Assembly (NCBI RefSeq): GCF_006345805.1 | Contig: NC_042998.1 | Location: forward strand, 39,866,001 to 39,930,000 | Origin: Octopus sinensis | Taxonomy: Eukaryota | Direction of reading: 5' to 3' | DNA length: 64,000 bases | In this document: one piece after another, positions 50,780 through 64,000 of the stretch | How positions within the stretch are numbered: position 1 is the first letter of the stretch | Layout: each line of letters begins with the position of its first letter | Program-made: the position numbers and the translations under genes | Notes under the pieces: model-generated | Told to the model about the DNA's origin: nothing | Database searches by the model: none | Seen by the model: the letters and a program-made list of their open reading frames with translations, nothing else

Positions 50780-52403
50780 CTGTGGAGTACAAATAAAAGA
50801 AAAGGCATATATTAATTAACAGACTAAACATTTGTATATTTCGGAAATAAATATAAAATAGATTATTACTAAGAGATTTAACCATAAAAATTATATTCCT
50901 TTCTTTATCCTTTTTCATGGGGGTTAGATGAATCTGAAAGTCTGAACAATTACAGGAAGTCTATGACTGGAATTCCTTCTTCACACAAACCATTAAAAAC
51001 TTAAATGAAATAGATCAAAGTACATTTTGGAAGCATACTACACACAAGCAGGATTTGAAACCTCCACAAACTATTTTGCTGCTTGAAGAAACAATGCTTT
51101 GCCTTGGGCTTTCAATTCACAGAGGCATCATCATGAACTACAGCATCTTTGGGACATTTTTAGACATGGCAGAGCCTATCCCTCTCCAGGCTTGACTAGA
51201 ACATGACTGGTAATTTATTTCTCAATCTTGAAAAATATGAAAGGCTAAGTTGACTTCAGTAAGTTTTGTTTAAATTCAGAGTGTAGTGAGCCAGAACAAA
51301 TATCATAAAATAATCTGACACTCAAATACCTCTGCCAACTGACTGCCTTGACAGGAAGGGTAAGAGTAACAAAATGCTCCAATTTATCATATCAACAATA
51401 TAAATTAGGAACCTGCCCCAAATATTAAAGGCAATTTACAAATTGTTTCTTTCCTTATTATTCCCCACAATCACTAAAAAGTCTAACAGTGTATGCCACT
51501 TTTCAAGGTATTAAGCAGTTGAAAGTCCCTGCCCCCACCCACTCTGGAGAACAGAGAGAGAGAGAGATTACTAATATTCCAAACATTTTCCTCTGAATCC
51601 AATACTGTGGATTATCAAAAGCTTAACAAATACGTAATAGTTGAATGTATTATCAAACTACTTCACTTAGTTTCATTCGCCACCATTATATTTCTTCAGC
51701 GGATTATTCACAGGAACAGGACTTTACATCTGTTTTTATGCAATGCACTCTTAGCATAATTAAAATTGGAAAATGAGTTAAGACATGAACACAATCTGTT
51801 CCAACCCATATTGTCTCTGTAACTACATGTCTGGCCTTCTACAATTAACTAAATACATTAGCTAATTACCAGAACACTATATCAGCATCCAAAAATCACT
51901 ATTTTTTCCATTTAATCTAGACAAACACAAGATAGTTGCAAAACTCTGTGCAATGATTATCAATGGGATCAAGCTATCTGACAATAACACTATTCCCTTT
52001 AGTTTTTGCCTTACTGTTGCCATTTTCAGTAGTTTTGATCATTAATGAAGAGATTAGACAGCAAATTAAACACAGCACACTAATTCTTACACTTCATTTA
52101 ACACTATTAACAACTGCAAAACAGAAACTATAGTGTCTGATCTGATATGAAACTATTAAAGCATTTATGTTTACAGGTTTTGTACTTGTAGAATTCACTC
52201 TGAAACAAAAATTTAATCATTGATAATATATAGATTTTGTTGCAATTTTATTTATTTAAAATTTTATTTTTCCTTTTATGAATAAGAAATTTACTACACC
52301 ATCAAATATTTATATAATTTTGTACATTTTGTATATTTTTTTAAACTGAAGCTAATTTAAGAGAACAAAAATTACTGGAAAATTATTTTGAAAATTAACT
52401 TAC

Positions 52404-52636
52404 TCTTTTCTTGGTGCAACCAGATTTCACAAGAATAGCAAAATCTCCAATTTCATGAGGAATTTCATGCAGGAAGATAGTGATGGTTGTTACAATTCCA
52501 ACATTACGGCCAACAAGGAAAGAAGCACCAATGGCCAACCCATCAGTGAAATTATGAGCAAAATCTGCGGCAAGATTCAAGTAACCAGATACAGCAATTT
52601 CGTTTTGGACTTGTGAGTCTGTTTCTTTAGATGATG
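52404..52636 (-). CDS. SLC39A7: Zinc transporter ZIP7, exon 2
   Basis: Acceptor tttacttcag|, donor |gtaagt, phase 1-0. Contains [24 protein letters not shown] and the LIV-1 family motif [13 protein letters not shown]. Confidence 0.95.
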
Positions 52637-56534: not shown

Positions 56535-57372
56535 AATTCTCTTCCTTTTCTTTTTTGTCATCTCCTTCATCATCAGATGTCTTCTCTTTCTTTTTTTCTT
56601 GGCTGTGAGAATGGCTATGAGAATGGCTATGTGATCCTTTCAGATGACGAACTACTTTCTCAACAGTGAGGAAGACTATAATCCCAGTCAGAACCCACAG
56701 ACCGATGGACAAATCATGACTGTGGCCTCCACCACCGTGTGAGTGACCATGATGATGATCATGACCACCATCTGAATCATCAGAATTCTGGGAACCAGAA
56801 TGTGGAATTAGATGTAAAAATGCATCACCTAAAAGACCTCCAGATGCAAAACTAAGAAGTATTTTAAGAAAAGGTAAATTATCCTCGGTATTTTCTAAAG
56901 GAATGAAAAACAGGATAACCACTGGAGCCGCACTGATGATAAGAGTAGCCCCAATAGCCTGGAGCCAGAGTACTGGTCCCATAACTTTAGGTTGGTGGGT
57001 ATGTTTGCTGTCTTCAGAACCGCTGTGATGAGAGTGACCATGATGAGAGTGAGCGTGACCGTCGTGAGAGTGATCGTGGTGAGCGTGACCGTCGTGAGAG
57101 TGATCGTGGTGAGCGGGCTCTGAATGAGGAACTTCGTTAGCTTCCCGACTATACCTAAAGTTTGCAGTTTCAGAGCCTGAAGGGTCTTCGTGTGCATGGC
57201 CATGATGTGCATGTCCGTGTCCGTGATGTGCATGACCGTGGCCGTGATGTACATGACCGTGGCCGTGATGTGCATGACCGTGGTCATGATGTGCATGACC
57301 ATGTTCGAAGTGGTCTTCGTGACACTGTCCAAAACTGATCACTAAACATAAAATCACCACTGTATAAATCAT
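56535..57372 (-). CDS. SLC39A7: Zinc transporter ZIP7, exon 1 (signal peptide, His-rich ectodomain, TM1-3); alternative upstream ATG at 57501
   Basis: Signal [17 protein letters not shown], His-rich repeats, [20 protein letters not shown] and [20 protein letters not shown]; donor |gtaagt at 56534. Spliced CDS is 838+233+252 = 1323 nt (440 aa). Confidence 0.93.
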
Positions 57373-57985
57373 ATTAAGCGGTATAGATCTACAGTGACTA
57401 AAATAAATACTTGTTGAATTTTTTCTGTGCCTTTTAAAATTGCGGGAGTAGTTACAGCTGGAGAACACGTTTAAGTGACTAGGGTTACTCTCAGTGCCCA
57501 TCTGTACTGTTGTAATATTTCCTCCAAACCTCCACTATGTGACAGTTATGCAGACGTGGCTTTTCTAATGACGCTCTCTATGCTATACGTGATTATTTCC
57601 CTTTAATCTGGATTTTTTGGTTCCATTATTTTCCTTGTATTGTTCACATAAGTTAACTTTCATATTAAAAAATACATATTTTGTAAGGAGAGTTTATACT
57701 TTTATAATAAACTATAATTGAACGAAAAAATAAAATTTATTCACTGTGTTCCTCGATTTTAATACGTTTTAATACGTATATTTAGACTATAAGATTGATT
57801 CTATCACTGATGACAAGATTTTAAAATCTCTAGAACAATAAAAATTATTCAGTTTGAGAAAACAGGAAGTCAAATCTCAAATTTAAAAATTAAGATGAAT
57901 GGTTACAACTTCATTCAGTCTGGTTGCATCAGATATCCAGGTGTATACTAAGAGAACAGATTACAGAGTAAGGATTCCAAGACAA

Positions 57986-58469: not shown

Positions 58470-59871
58470 ATGCTTTACAATTCCAGTGAAAGTACAGTCT
58501 TTTCATAAAAGGACAATCTTTCATAGAAATTCTTTACTGGTATATTTTAATTTAATTTAATTCCCTCTCTAAGTTCAAAACTGGGAGACATATATAAATA
58601 TTATATTGATTCCAATTGATTCAACATCCAGATGTTCTACAACTTTATATAGATTATGTGTCACCTACTACTACTACCACCACCATCACCACCAATTTTT
58701 GCTTCAGTCAGTAAAATGAATGCCTCATCTCCCCTCTCCTGCACAAAGAATCTTAAATACCTGTAAATTATTTTACACTCACTGAAATGACTACACTTAG
58801 GTCAGCTAAAACTTTCCCCATTCATTTATAGTTTATGTTAACTGTCTATTACTCTTTATTTTTATATTCTTTTACTGGTTTCAGTCATAGAACCGAGACC
58901 ATGTTGGGGACTGCCCTCTAGAATTTAGTCAGTATCAACTCCATTATTTAAATGAGTTTGGTTCTTATTTTATCTATCTTTGTTTTTTAAGATGCTAAGT
59001 CACAGAACATATAGGGATACAACATAAATAATATGGATTCAAGGTTGTTGTCAGTGTAATCACAGACATAGGCATGCATGCACACACACACACACACACA
59101 CACACATTACATAGGCTTTTCAGCTCTCTCATCTTTATCCTCTCTGCGACTAGTACCTTGATAAAATGTACCTGGTGCATTCTGCAAAGTGTAGGGTTGA
59201 GAGGACTCTTTAGTCTCATCAAAGTCACAGCCACCTCCCTAGTGCTGGTGCCATGAAAAAATATACTCAATGCACTCTGTAAAGTAGTTGACCTTAAGAA
59301 AGGCAGCTAGCAGTAGAAACCAAACCAAAATTAAAATTTATAAGTGAGATATGGTTCCTTCAATTATCTAGAAGAGGAGAAATGCCCCATCCAACACATG
59401 TCAGCATGGAAAGTAGACATAAAAGTAATGCTACTGCTGATATATTAGTATAGTTTGTATGAAGCGTTGTCGGGTATACATAAATGCTTTGAATTTTTGT
59501 TTTAAACTAAAACAATGTAATGTAATTCAATATTGAATTAGAGGTAAAAGTACAAACTATCAACTTGGTGTGGCTGTGTGGTAAGAAGTTTGCTTCACAA
59601 CCATATGGTTCCAGGTTCACTCCTACTACGTGGTACCTTGGGTAGGTATCTTCTACTAAAGCCTTGGGAGCAGATTTGGGAAATTTAAACTAAAAGAAAC
59701 CCATGATGTGTGTGTGTGTGTGTGTGCATTTTTGTATTTGTCCCATACCACCATTTGACAACTGGTGTTGGTGTGTTTAATACCCCATAGCTTAGTGGTT
59801 TGCCAAAAGAAATTGATAGAACAAGTACCATGCTTAAAAAAAGTACTGGGGTCAGTTCATTCAAATAAAAA

Positions 59872-60150
59872 TTTTGGCTGATATACCCTCCAGCCTTCAT
59901 CAGGTGTCTTGGGGAAATTTTGAACCTGGGTTCTCATTCCTAAGGTATTTTTTGATGTTGTTGTTATTATTATCATTATTATTAAAATACCTAAGGAATG
60001 AGAACCAAGGTTCAAAATCTCCCCAAGACACCTGATGAAGGCTGGAGGGCAGCCAAAACGTTGTGTTAACAACAAACAAGATGCGGACAAATATCCATCA
60101 AATATAAATAATGTAAATAATGTACATAAATCTTCATCTTTTAAATATAG
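59872..60150. mobile_element. Palindromic Penelope-type pseudo-LTR pair with minimal hammerhead motifs (locus 1)
   Basis: Inverted arms around a (TTA)n centre. The right arm reads GACAC-CTGATGA-A-GGCTG-gaggg-CAGCC-AAAA-C-GTT-GTGTT at 60027-60067. Confidence 0.7.
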
Positions 60151-61189
60151 TATGGATAGTTTGACAAGGAGCTGGCTGGCTGGCTGGGAGCTGTCCAGAC
60201 TCCAACTGTCTGTTGTGGCGTGATTTCTATGGCTGGATACCCTTCCTATTGCCAACTACTTAACAGAGTGTGCTGGGTGCTTTTTACATGCCACCAGCAT
60301 AGGTACATTTATATAGCACTGACACAGGTGGCACTGGTACTTGAAAGAACAAGCCTGTGTGTGTGGAGGCCCAGCATGGTCATAGCCTAATGATTGAAAC
60401 AAGTTAAAGAAAACAAAAGTAATGTGTGTGTGTGTGTATCATCCCATTTTAACATCCACTTTTCTATGCTTGTTTGGATTGGACAGACTTTCTACAGCCC
60501 TTCCTGTCACCAAACCTCACCTGTTTTCAAGGAAAGTAATATTTCCCCATGGCTGAACATGTTTTTATGAAAGATTGGAAATTTGAAATGCTTGTATGAT
60601 GGTGATACTTGCTTACAGCTATCATGTGATATGAGAACAAGGAGACACACAAACACACTCGTATATATATACACATCACCATAATTTAATGTCCACTTTT
60701 CCTTGCTTGCATGGGTGAGACAAAATTTGTTCAAGCAGATTTTCTATGGCCAGATACTATTCCTGTCACCAAGATATACACACAATGAGCTTCTTATAGT
60801 TTCCCTTCACAAAATCCACTAACAAGGCTTTGGTTGGCCCACGACTATAGTAGAAGACACTTACCCAGTGGAACTGAACCTGAAACTATATGGATAGGAA
60901 GCAAACTAATTAACCATACACACACACACACATGTTCATGTGTCTATGTATACAGCAGGCTCCCACAGTATTCATTTACCAAATTCCACTCATAACATAG
61001 TGATTTAGCTGAAGCCATAGGATAAGGTGCCAAACCATCAGATTGAAGCCAAAACTACATAACTGCAAAACAAACTTCTTAACTACATCAAATCTGTTTT
61101 TCTTTTATATTCTTCAATGTATTTATTATATATGAAACTATGTAAACTACATCAGTGAGTAAATAAACAATTGTCTAGACTTATATCGA

Positions 61190-61520
61190 AGAGTGTGCTG
61201 GGTGCTTTTTACATGCCACCAGCACAGGTACATTTATGCAGCACTGGTACTTCAAAGAACAAGCCTGTATGTGTGGAGGCCAGTAATTTTACTTAGCTTG
61301 ATGTGTCTTATCAAGTACAGAAAATTGCCATAACTCCTGGTCCCTCATCATTTCCTCAGTGAAGCCCAGCATCTGAAGATACTTTTTCGCCACTCTGTTC
61401 CACATCTTCCTAGTCTACCCTTTCCACAGGCGCTTCTTTATGTAGCTCTCCGCATCCATATGTATCACATGACCAAACCACTACAGTATTCTCTCTTGCA
61501 CACATCTGATGTCTCTTATT
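61190..61520 (-). mobile_element. Diverged RTE 3' coding/UTR fragment
   Basis: Minus VQERIL.WFGHVIHMD remnant plus the family UTR; its first ~95 bp are duplicated at 60264-60370. Confidence 0.6.
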
Positions 61521-61687
61521 TATTTTTAGAATGACATTGTAGGGTAGGTGTGAAAGGCTGGATTGGGTTAACTTGAACATAAAATAGGTAGGATATTTTG
61601 GCTGAATATAGTTGGCCTAAATGCTAAAGGGTTAAGGAAACTACACAGATTTGTGAAAAAAAATCAATTTGAAAATATTATTCGCTA

Positions 61688-62020
61688 ACATTATTTACAT
61701 TATTTATATTTGACGGATATTTGTCCTCATCTCGTTTGTTGTTAACACGTTTTGGCTTATATACCCTCCAGCCTTCATCAGGTGTCTTGGGGGGAATTTT
61801 GAACCTGGGTTCTCATTCCTAAGATATTTTTTGATGTTGTTGTTATTATTATTATTATACCTTAGGAATGAGAACCCAGGTTCAAAATTTTCCCAAGACA
61901 CCTCATGAAGGCTGGAGAGCATATCAGCCAAAACGTTGTGTTAACAACAAACAAGATGAGGACAAATATCCGTCAAATATAAATAATGTAAACAATTCCT
62001 CATCTCTTAAATATAGAACT
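61688..62020. mobile_element. Palindromic Penelope-type pseudo-LTR pair with minimal hammerhead motifs (locus 2)
   Basis: Inverted arms of ~140 bp (acattatttatatttgacggatatttgtcctcatc...cctaag / cttagg...gatgaggacaaatatccgtcaaatataaataatgt), each with a hammerhead-like motif. Confidence 0.75.
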
Positions 62021-62454
62021 GTATAATTCATTAAATCATTATAATTCAACCAGATAATTTAGAAAGATAACCACTATATCAGCCTGATACAAATTAAAAT
62101 ATGAATTCATGTACACTCTGTAAAGGGCTGTGAAAGCCGGTGCTCCTTTGGCAGGTGATCTACAAGGAAGATTGCTTTAGGTAACTTTCAAAATTATTTT
62201 GTACATACTTAGCATTGTAAATGTATTTTTTCAAAATTCTTACTATTTTAATAATAAGAAAACTATATAATTATTAGAAAAATATCATACAAAAACACAA
62301 GTGGTTTCCCAACAAGTCACAACTGCTACTCTGTTTTGTGATTTTTGTTTGTAACCATTTCATATCCTCTATAGTGTTAATGGGTTGGCAACTAAGTTCC
62401 TGTCGTTTTTTTAAATTTAAATTTTTTAATAGGTTTAATAAAAAATAACAACTA

Positions 62455-63401: not shown

Positions 63402-63841
63402 TTAAAAATAATCTTTAAAATATCTTTGACATTTATGCAGATGAGCAGTTAAAAGTGAAGTTCCTGAAAATGAAACTAGAGATTGAATAAAAAAAAATAA
63501 TCAAAGGACTTGTTCGATATGACAATATGACAGTTTATTTTACTTGGGTTACAAATCACTGACATTCCAAGTATCCAGTCAGATAATAGGGAAATTTTAA
63601 TGATGAAATCAAAGGAAATTGTTTAAAAAAAATAAAAACTAATGTCATGCATACTGATGTGTTTCTGTGTGTATACTGAATTTATTTTTAAGAACACACA
63701 CAAAATTTCACATGGACACATACATGTATATACACAGACACTTTTATCTAATAAAGAGCAAAACTTTAAATCATATAAATCTCGTTTTAGAAGGCACATC
63801 AAGAAAATGTACCTTGTCACACACTCACATTACCAACGTAT

Positions 63842-64000
63842 TTAAAAGTCTGCAATGTACAGTAACCCAACGTTTGCTGTTAACCACTTGATTATGTTAA
63901 TAGAGTGCATATGTTGTAGCAAAATCTTACACACACACAAAATCATTCCGGTGATTAGCAATACAACAGAAAATGCAATATTATTTGCACTTGTATTCCA
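63842..64000 (-). CDS. Possible C-terminal coding end of a membrane protein entering from beyond the window
   Basis: Open minus frame from the window edge: WNTSANNIAFSVVLLITGMILCVCKILLQHMHSINIIKWLTANVGLLYIADF*. It has a TM-like stretch, but no family was recognised. Confidence 0.25.
   Translation of the reverse strand, partial: WNTSANNIAFSVVLLITGMILCVCKILLQHMHSINIIKWLTANVGLLYIADF

Follow-up and report, generated by a model that had tools for sequence, protein, structure and literature searches.

Palindromic hammerhead loci of Octopus sinensis as probable two-armed stubs of a coding Penelope-type element with a tRNA-derived head

A stretch of 64,000 nucleotides from the Octopus sinensis genome (NC_042998.1, positions 39,866,001 to 39,930,000; hereafter the window, in whose numbering positions are given) contains two palindromic loci that raise the question of whether such structures are mobile units in their own right or the remains of something larger. 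An initial annotation, made from the sequence of the window, described them as ORF-less palindromes of Penelope type carrying paired minimal hammerhead ribozymes, and suggested a non-autonomous unit whose transcript folds into a long hairpin. Both loci lie where the annotation placed them, with arms inverted around a TTG/TTA centre. The main inverted arm pairs, each accompanied by inner pairs, are 59886-59951/59984-60049 in element 1 (95% identity) and 61690-61748/61938-61996 in element 2 (97% identity), and RNA folding of the two palindromes gives 81 and 134 pairs. Their parts, referred to positions of the parent element described below, are as follows:

59872..59959, minus strand: inverted arm of element 1; parent positions 1-88, ending inside the hammerhead core
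59960..59983, no strand: centre of element 1; remnant of the parent (AAT)n/(AAC)n linker, inverted, tRNA-derived head absent
59984..60150, plus strand: direct arm of element 1, spanning parent positions 9-180; contains the hammerhead and the greater part of the tail
60027..60067, plus strand: minimal type I hammerhead motif of element 1; core G->A at 60055 and a 5-base deletion in loop II; predicted inactive
61676..61688, plus strand: likely left target-site duplication copy of element 2, decayed; 10 of 13 bases match the right copy
61688..61838, minus strand: inverted arm of element 2, tail-less and covering parent positions 1-153; its hammerhead has AAAA, an altered stem II and a loss of 3 bases at the cleavage site
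61839..61856, no strand: centre of element 2; remnant of the linker microsatellite, head absent
61857..62027, plus strand: direct tailed arm of element 2; parent positions 12-191; ATG at 61868-61870, tail at about 61997-62027
62022..62034, plus strand: likely right target-site duplication copy of element 2, decayed; overlaps the tail end

Element 2 is complete in form, with a tail-less left arm, a tailed right arm and a likely, decayed 13-base duplication. No target duplication was seen for element 1, the outer tip of whose left arm was likely lost through later deletion. Both copies end in the (AAT)n linker and are without the tRNA-derived head, and the direct arm of element 1 holds the start of the parent frame (ATG at 59998-60000). 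The description as ORF-less has to be given up in this respect, since the arms derive from the first ~55 codons of the parent frame.

The two copies have a ZIP zinc-transporter gene on one side and the 3' end of a second transcript on the other; gene and transcript are both encoded on the minus strand. The ZIP gene (52403-52636 and 56535-57552, minus strand; Pfam Zip, E 4e-21) is expressed and encodes a His-rich loop, and its 5' end lies near 57522, 2.3 kb from element 1. On the other side, an expressed non-coding stretch at 63512-64000 (minus strand) ends at 63512 behind a hexamer resembling a poly(A) signal, and is likely the 3' UTR of a gene that extends beyond the window. Element 1 is flanked by two decayed, oppositely oriented copies (59570-59670 and 60838-60912) of another abundant repeat with tRNA-like boxes, probably a SINE.

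Four copies of an 18-base core motif of the hammerhead lie in the window, where 0.03 would be expected. The best arm reads as annotated, with GACAC from 60027 followed by CTGATGA, A, GGCTG/CAGCC, AAAA, CGTT and GTGTT to 60067, a pattern like that described for minimal hammerheads (PMC4209133). The hammerhead call in the window rests on this published pattern; Rfam models, to which the annotation had looked for a check, call no hammerhead in the window loci at E <= 10. MicroRNA-precursor look-alikes returned by Rfam on this stretch fell below their cut-offs, were produced by the long hairpin, and were rejected. All four window arms carry AAAA; in addition, the direct arm at 61857-62027, whose hammerhead begins at 61897, reads CTCATGA, and the arm at 59872-59959 is cut off within the core. 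With AAAA and broken cores in all four arms, the earlier judgement that these copies are probably inactive stands.

The state of the family is different. Exact-pattern matches in the 2.7-Gb genome number 2,937 for the GAAA form and 606 for the AAAA form, with none for a reversed control, and the family state is cagccGAAAcgtt, the GAAA form that the annotation had anticipated. Among 213 arms picked without regard to the hammerhead, the core G is changed to A in 33 of 192 and the C of the same CpG to T in 34 of 192, while other CpGs of the arms are changed in 14-22% and the non-CpG background amounts to 4-5%. Because the core CpG changes at the rate of other CpGs, sequence comparison identifies GAAA as ancestral and AAAA as the product of CpG decay. 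The family majority shows the published traits of a minimal type I hammerhead of Penelope type, as had been proposed: CUGANGA and GAAA, a short stem I, an extra base before stem II, a G-C closing pair, a palindromic ACGU in place of stem III, and an NUH site; the four window arms depart from these traits in carrying AAAA. Copies of the family show neutral decay with no stem covariation, and related loci combine the same core with other stem II sequences, as judged by eye. Minimum-energy cofolding yielded no ACGU dimer. Minimal metazoan hammerheads of Penelope-like elements (PLEs) have the same stem I, extra base, G-C pair and palindromic 15.2-16.2 positions, for which a dimer model is described (Cervera and de la Pena, 2014; PMC4209133); judging by its sequence, the octopus ribozyme itself appears no different from those treated in that text, and the window copies are mutated.

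A subfamily with CTGAAGA for CTGATGA was found in 34 of 184 arms; the change, at family position 61 (hammerhead N7), affects the sole free core position and is also conservative in the reading frame. The genome also contains a second, unrelated hammerhead family (L002:3035-3103, minus strand; Rfam Hammerhead_1, 33.2 bits, E 5e-5), to which the core at L374:6621 is similar by pattern.

The arms belong to a coding element, and the RT/GIY-YIG partner suggested by the annotation exists. A majority frame of 838 codons, built from 90 loci, contains RT and GIY-YIG; near-complete copies were found by walking out from the arm (L096, L101 and L110), L101 being a real copy with 551 open codons. Pfam RVT_1 is matched by real copies, L101 alone having no Pfam match, and GIY-YIG was assigned in the parent by eye from motifs, with no direct Pfam GIY-YIG match. 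PDB sequences gave no match below E 0.1. Homologues number 1,690 and, among the matches listed, RVT_1 is present in all and GIY-YIG in some. The assignment to Penelope type was borne out in that the parent has a single frame with RT and C-terminal GIY-YIG, of which the window copies keep the first codons only; the Penelope/Poseidon label itself is an assumption from domain order and motifs. The frame opens inside the arm, so that the hammerhead is coding sequence (codons ~11-25), and the frame reads through, which disposed of the idea of an intron at its start. In one homologue 56% identical to the parent (P0003) the peptide through the hammerhead is kept (PDDG..PKRCV versus PDEG..PKRCV), and this pattern is retained in only that one of 21 long homologues.

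In the parent, the frame stop is followed by 30 bases, a 74-base head, (AAT)n, the ATG, the hammerhead and the tail. Pseudo-LTRs that include the frame start are present at both ends in L096, L110, L235, L237, L244, L246 and L250. A first look gave ~3,100 candidates for the arm versus 424 and 368 for 5' coding parts. The head belongs to the coding element, not to an independent non-coding SINE unit, and copies are single or head to head, in place of the non-coding head-to-tail tandems characteristic of non-LTR retrozymes. The window palindromes are almost certainly ordinary dead stubs of this coding Penelope-type element.

How palindromes arise was addressed with 118 loci, of which 29 were similar to the tailed arm of element 2 and 89 came from the exact-match listing (93 of the first 100 listed of 2,937 matches, after removal of one duplicate locus). 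Each locus was examined with about 1.5 kb of DNA upstream, so distant partners are missed in these counts: an inverted partner arm was present in 69 of the 118. Spacers between paired arms range from -18 to 1,329 bases, with 60 or fewer in seven of the 69, and the long ones contain the coding 3' end of the parent itself. In 65 of the 69 pairs, one arm has the tail and the other lacks it (44 of 48 among the pattern-picked pairs, p=8e-10). A word of at least 8 bases, with a mode of 12, is common to the flanks on both sides in 43 of the 69 pairs, compared with 0 of 49 in the control. Because the flanks share duplicated words, it was concluded that a single insertion of the coding element produced each palindrome. 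The 5' reach is longer in the tail-less arm in 30 of 65 pairs, longer in the tailed arm in 25, and equal in 10. Fold-back of a single cDNA was rejected as the general source of palindromes, with the tail-less arm longer in those 30 pairs, because one folded cDNA cannot give its copy a tail that it does not itself have. Across 116 pairs, subfamily sites agree between the two arms (odds ratios 20-108) but the state of the core CpG does not (1.2), and thus the arms come from one source element and decayed later. Priming of two cDNAs in one insertion event is our own reading of these patterns; by analogy with the anole enzyme discussed below, whose two internal start sites and two-strand extension it fits, it is probably correct.

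The shared state of the four window arms deserves separate consideration. All four carry G>A at parent positions 39 and 85, and G>A is present at positions 7 and 134 wherever these are covered. The region is CpG-poor (observed/expected 0.18, versus a median of 0.80), and plain local CpG decay was weighed as a complete explanation for AAAA in all four; against it stands that arms of either orientation carry G>A at identical sites. Because the changes run in the same direction in both arm orientations, the four arms more likely go back to a common source whose core was already dead, or to local copying. The two copies lie 1.8 kb apart and share a short centre of a rare kind, which likewise suggests a common source or local copying. 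If a source with a dead core was shared, insertion would not have depended on cleavage, in agreement with the anole assay. No subfamily marked by these G>A changes was found: they occur in 14 of 289 arms, four of which are those of the window, with 7.8 expected by chance.

At the RNA level there is no sign that the window palindromes are transcribed, as the hairpin proposal had supposed; read depth in the unique flanks is 0-1.6, in runs labelled as another organism, which makes this a weak test. On a full copy, RNA reads from both strands track the DNA copy profile with no pile-up of starts at the head, again a weak test, as the libraries are fragmented, apparently unstranded, and labelled as an organism other than the best DNA source. 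The head-start junction is the commonest loose end in the RNA reads (340 and 285 reads). Differences between RNA reads and the genome are indistinguishable from copy and species differences, and no A-to-I signal is claimed.

The head of the parent is the feature that sets the family apart. Its 74 bases can be aligned over their full length with tRNAs of the same genome; in a comparison with 12 tRNA genes of 7 amino-acid types, the best match was Arg-TCT (49 of 73 bases), and none of 500 shuffles did as well. The head carries A and B boxes and has lost the tRNA stems; ARAGORN and Rfam give no tRNA call on it. An arm lies downstream in 18 of 20 loci picked by the head, and of 30 loci selected with the 5' part of the frame, five show the head in front of it. 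Of 111 arms linked to the head or the body, 82 reach +10, and 62 of these end within -20..+10 of the head start, at a rate of 0.3-0.4 per 10 bases versus 0-0.025 upstream. The remaining 20 of the 82 continue past the head into the 3' end of the frame, three pairs doing so in both arms, which implies that longer templates exist. Several copies end at -2 (or -3) and are joined to unrelated DNA without fold-back. The head start is also a near-palindrome at -17..+10 on which many junctions are centred; BLAST ends at -5 to -17 are blurred by it, and by eye these are mostly two-arm junctions with true ends at about -2..+5. The pile-up could accordingly mark a hot spot of self-priming or stalling.

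A further property of the parent concerns TTTT, the stop signal of Pol III. Over the 2,682 bases of the unit, the sense strand never reads TTTT but has 31 AAAA; a synonymous codon shuffle predicts 3.0 TTTT (P=0.027), a modest deficit, and GGGG is likewise absent with 1.05 expected. Real copies, at 93% identity, contain 50 TTTT in 150,053 bases (0.33/kb), compared with 24 in 6,891 bases (3.5/kb) in four other Penelope-type frames of the same T content. TTTT is present in all 13 control retroelement frames of the genome at 1.9-6.7 per kb; these were hand-picked from clusters of retroelement loci found by Pfam searches, because a search with P0003 for other Poseidon-type families in the genome returned apparent copies of the same family. 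The first LINE controls lay on small unplaced contigs that may be non-host, and chromosome copies were added. Near eight other Penelope-type loci no A/B box pair was found. Among 35 related loci, namely those with long matches among 79 from metagenome contigs, six that lack A/B boxes are likewise free of TTTT over the matched stretch, two of them over ~2 kb.

A similar layout is seen in a distant relative. L386:2822-3030, on a metagenome contig and from one of these 35 loci, belongs to a tandem Penelope-type element that is 38% identical to the parent over 799 residues. Here, a stretch with A and B boxes 70 bases after the stop leads into an AAT-rich spacer and then a frame start overlapping a hammerhead. 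Within its unit, no other stretch resembles a tRNA as closely as the one with the boxes (z 4.9, 0 of 500 shuffles), but with a tRNA profile it scores no better than E 5.8; two TTTT occur where 4.0 are expected, which is not significant (P=0.19). With its weaker head-like stretch, L386 offers moderate grounds for considering that the same layout is present in another organism, and is best treated as a lead. The octopus genome also harbours young Penelope-type families (L371-L378; e.g., G000:C3:65733000-65740000), ~29% identical to the parent, with many intact 781-codon frames and normal TTTT content.

Taken as a whole, the palindromes are probably broken, extremely 5'-truncated, two-armed insertions of an abundant, coding Penelope/Poseidon-type element whose tRNA-derived head is likely a Pol III promoter. 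A Pol III template is inferred because the head is tRNA-derived, 5' ends lie at the head start, and the sense strand has no TTTT. Pol III would start the RNA at about -2 to +1 of the head. Short templates made in this way are a reasonably probable product, whereas reading by Pol III across the whole frame is the more doubtful proposition, and translation of an uncapped Pol III RNA is a difficulty for the Pol III reading. The element's own RT/endonuclease would cut the target strands ~12 bases apart, and two cDNAs from one source element would be primed, each at its own internal start site, these sites lying near +125 and +165 of the frame; by comparison with the anole enzyme in vitro, a two-strand cut with two-site priming is probable. 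Both cDNAs would end early or run off the 5' end of the RNA and then join head to head, giving the palindrome. The hammerhead would, on the dimer model, cleave through its ACGU palindrome and is likely dispensable for insertion. For the window copies, the cDNAs would have stopped in the (AAT)n linker, and their cores are dead.

Three other accounts have to be weighed against this one. The proposal that the palindrome is itself a non-autonomous unit, transcribed and moving as a long hairpin with paired ribozymes, can appeal to the likeness of the window copies in their short centre and orientation, to the four G>A changes that they share (positions 7, 39, 85 and 134), and to the stability of the folded hairpins. 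It is nevertheless highly improbable, as spacers in the family are continuous, few are short, and the long ones consist of the parent's coding end; moreover, no subfamily carries the shared changes beyond chance, and a long hairpin would pair each hammerhead with its own complement. An ordinary Pol II Penelope element with a SINE passenger inserted in its end repeat is a more serious contender, in which copies would end at the near-palindrome through self-priming or template switching and the lack of TTTT would follow from A-rich, phenylalanine-poor coding. The junctions centred on the near-palindrome agree with it, as do the commonest loose end of the RNA reads at the head start, the six head-less relatives lacking TTTT, the 5' palindromes and self-priming described for rotifer pseudo-LTRs (PMC3846280), and the LINE-like internal promoter described for Penelope of D. 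virilis (PMC2377424). It is judged unlikely, given that several copies end at -2/-3 on unrelated DNA without fold-back, that the A and B boxes are preserved though the stems are lost, that other Penelope-type frames of the same base composition contain TTTT ten times as often, and that a head-like stretch is found at the same place in the distant relative.

A mixed mode, in which Pol III makes short SINE-like RNAs (head, linker, hammerhead and tail) and protein and full copies come from Pol II read-through of tandems, overlaps the preferred explanation because the Pol III step is common to both; as a separate account it too seems unlikely. It would avoid the translation problem, and it agrees with the dominance of short copies among the first-look candidates and with the 20 of 82 arms that require templates extending upstream of the head. 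On the other hand, it leaves the lack of TTTT over the whole 2.5-kb frame without explanation, and no Pol III stop follows the tail to define a short RNA. Returning to the preferred reading, its parts may be joined in a single scheme, in which Pol III transcribes the element end to end from a tRNA promoter in the terminal repeat, the frame has been purged of stops, the element makes its own SINE-like stubs, the design recurs in L386 through recurrent or old tRNA capture, and the one-tail rule reflects a dimeric enzyme that primes its two cDNAs from a fixed pair of sites. This combination is offered tentatively.

Much of this picture is in line with previous work. PAc of Anolis carolinensis, a Penelope/Poseidon-clade PLE, likewise has one frame with RT and C-terminal GIY-YIG, a hammerhead that overlaps the frame start, and two in-frame reverse-transcription start sites that define the tail; its enzyme cuts and extends both strands, and hammerhead mutants still insert (Frangieh et al., 2024; PMC11167929). 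In the octopus family, unlike PAc, the whole hammerhead lies downstream of the likely ATG, and the accessible text on PAc mentions no tRNA-derived head or Pol III promoter. Opposite-strand motif pairs 100-700 bases apart have already been reported (PMC4209133). Rotifer Pen2a/Pen3a and PLEs in general are described as having the same inverted 5'-truncated copy, a 30-40-base tail at one end, 8-10-base target duplications, and pseudo-LTRs with the first codons and a 5' palindrome (PMC3846280; PMC8557442). The rotifer pseudo-LTR has a putative TATA box and initiator, where that of the octopus family starts with the tRNA-derived head, and self-priming is the preferred model in that account (PMC3846280), whereas the 30 of 65 octopus pairs with a longer tail-less arm fit two primings better.

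Promoters of the proposed kind are known from other elements. TRIMp3 elements (Cassandra, Helenus and Ajax) have a small-RNA-derived Pol III promoter in the terminal repeat, as proposed here, but are non-coding LTR elements, whereas the octopus family is a PLE coding for its own enzyme; autonomous LTR elements, by the same account, must use Pol II (Kojima, 2024; PMC10886601). Among the SINE-like repeats Sm-alpha and Sj-alpha of Schistosoma, Sm-alpha shows a similar order, with a Pol III promoter followed by a hammerhead (PMC6765202), and the hammerhead repeats of non-LTR retrozymes are linked to PLE end repeats, as here (PMC7229834; bioRxiv 10.64898/2026.07.22.740005). Sm-alpha and the retrozymes are non-coding head-to-tail tandems, in contrast to the octopus unit, which is the end of a coding element with head-to-head copies. 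The available portion of an octopus repeat annotation makes no mention of ribozymes (PMC13282606), and the main text of PMC13343379 mentions neither tRNA nor Pol III.

Penelope membership, the ribozyme type, paired opposite-strand hammerheads in stubs, inverted copies, the one-sided tail and target duplications are thus published knowledge. A tRNA-derived head in the end repeat of a coding Penelope element, the pile-up of 5' ends there, and the absence of TTTT are apparently new: for coding Penelope elements, neither a head of tRNA origin nor a Pol III promoter came up in a literature search that covered openly accessible papers and not Repbase, Dfam, subscription papers or supplements. Transcription of coding retrotransposons is generally ascribed to Pol II, and it is in non-coding parasites that Pol III promoters have been described. 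The counts made on the arms (one tail per pair, ~12-base duplications, a single source, and either arm being the longer) make the question of how inverted insertions form testable in the anole in vitro system. If the Pol III reading is true, the family would be a coding element whose promoter derives from a tRNA; as such it would blur the boundary between LINEs and SINEs, would show one route by which SINE-like and retrozyme-like repeats originate, and would make the translation of an uncapped RNA a question of its own.
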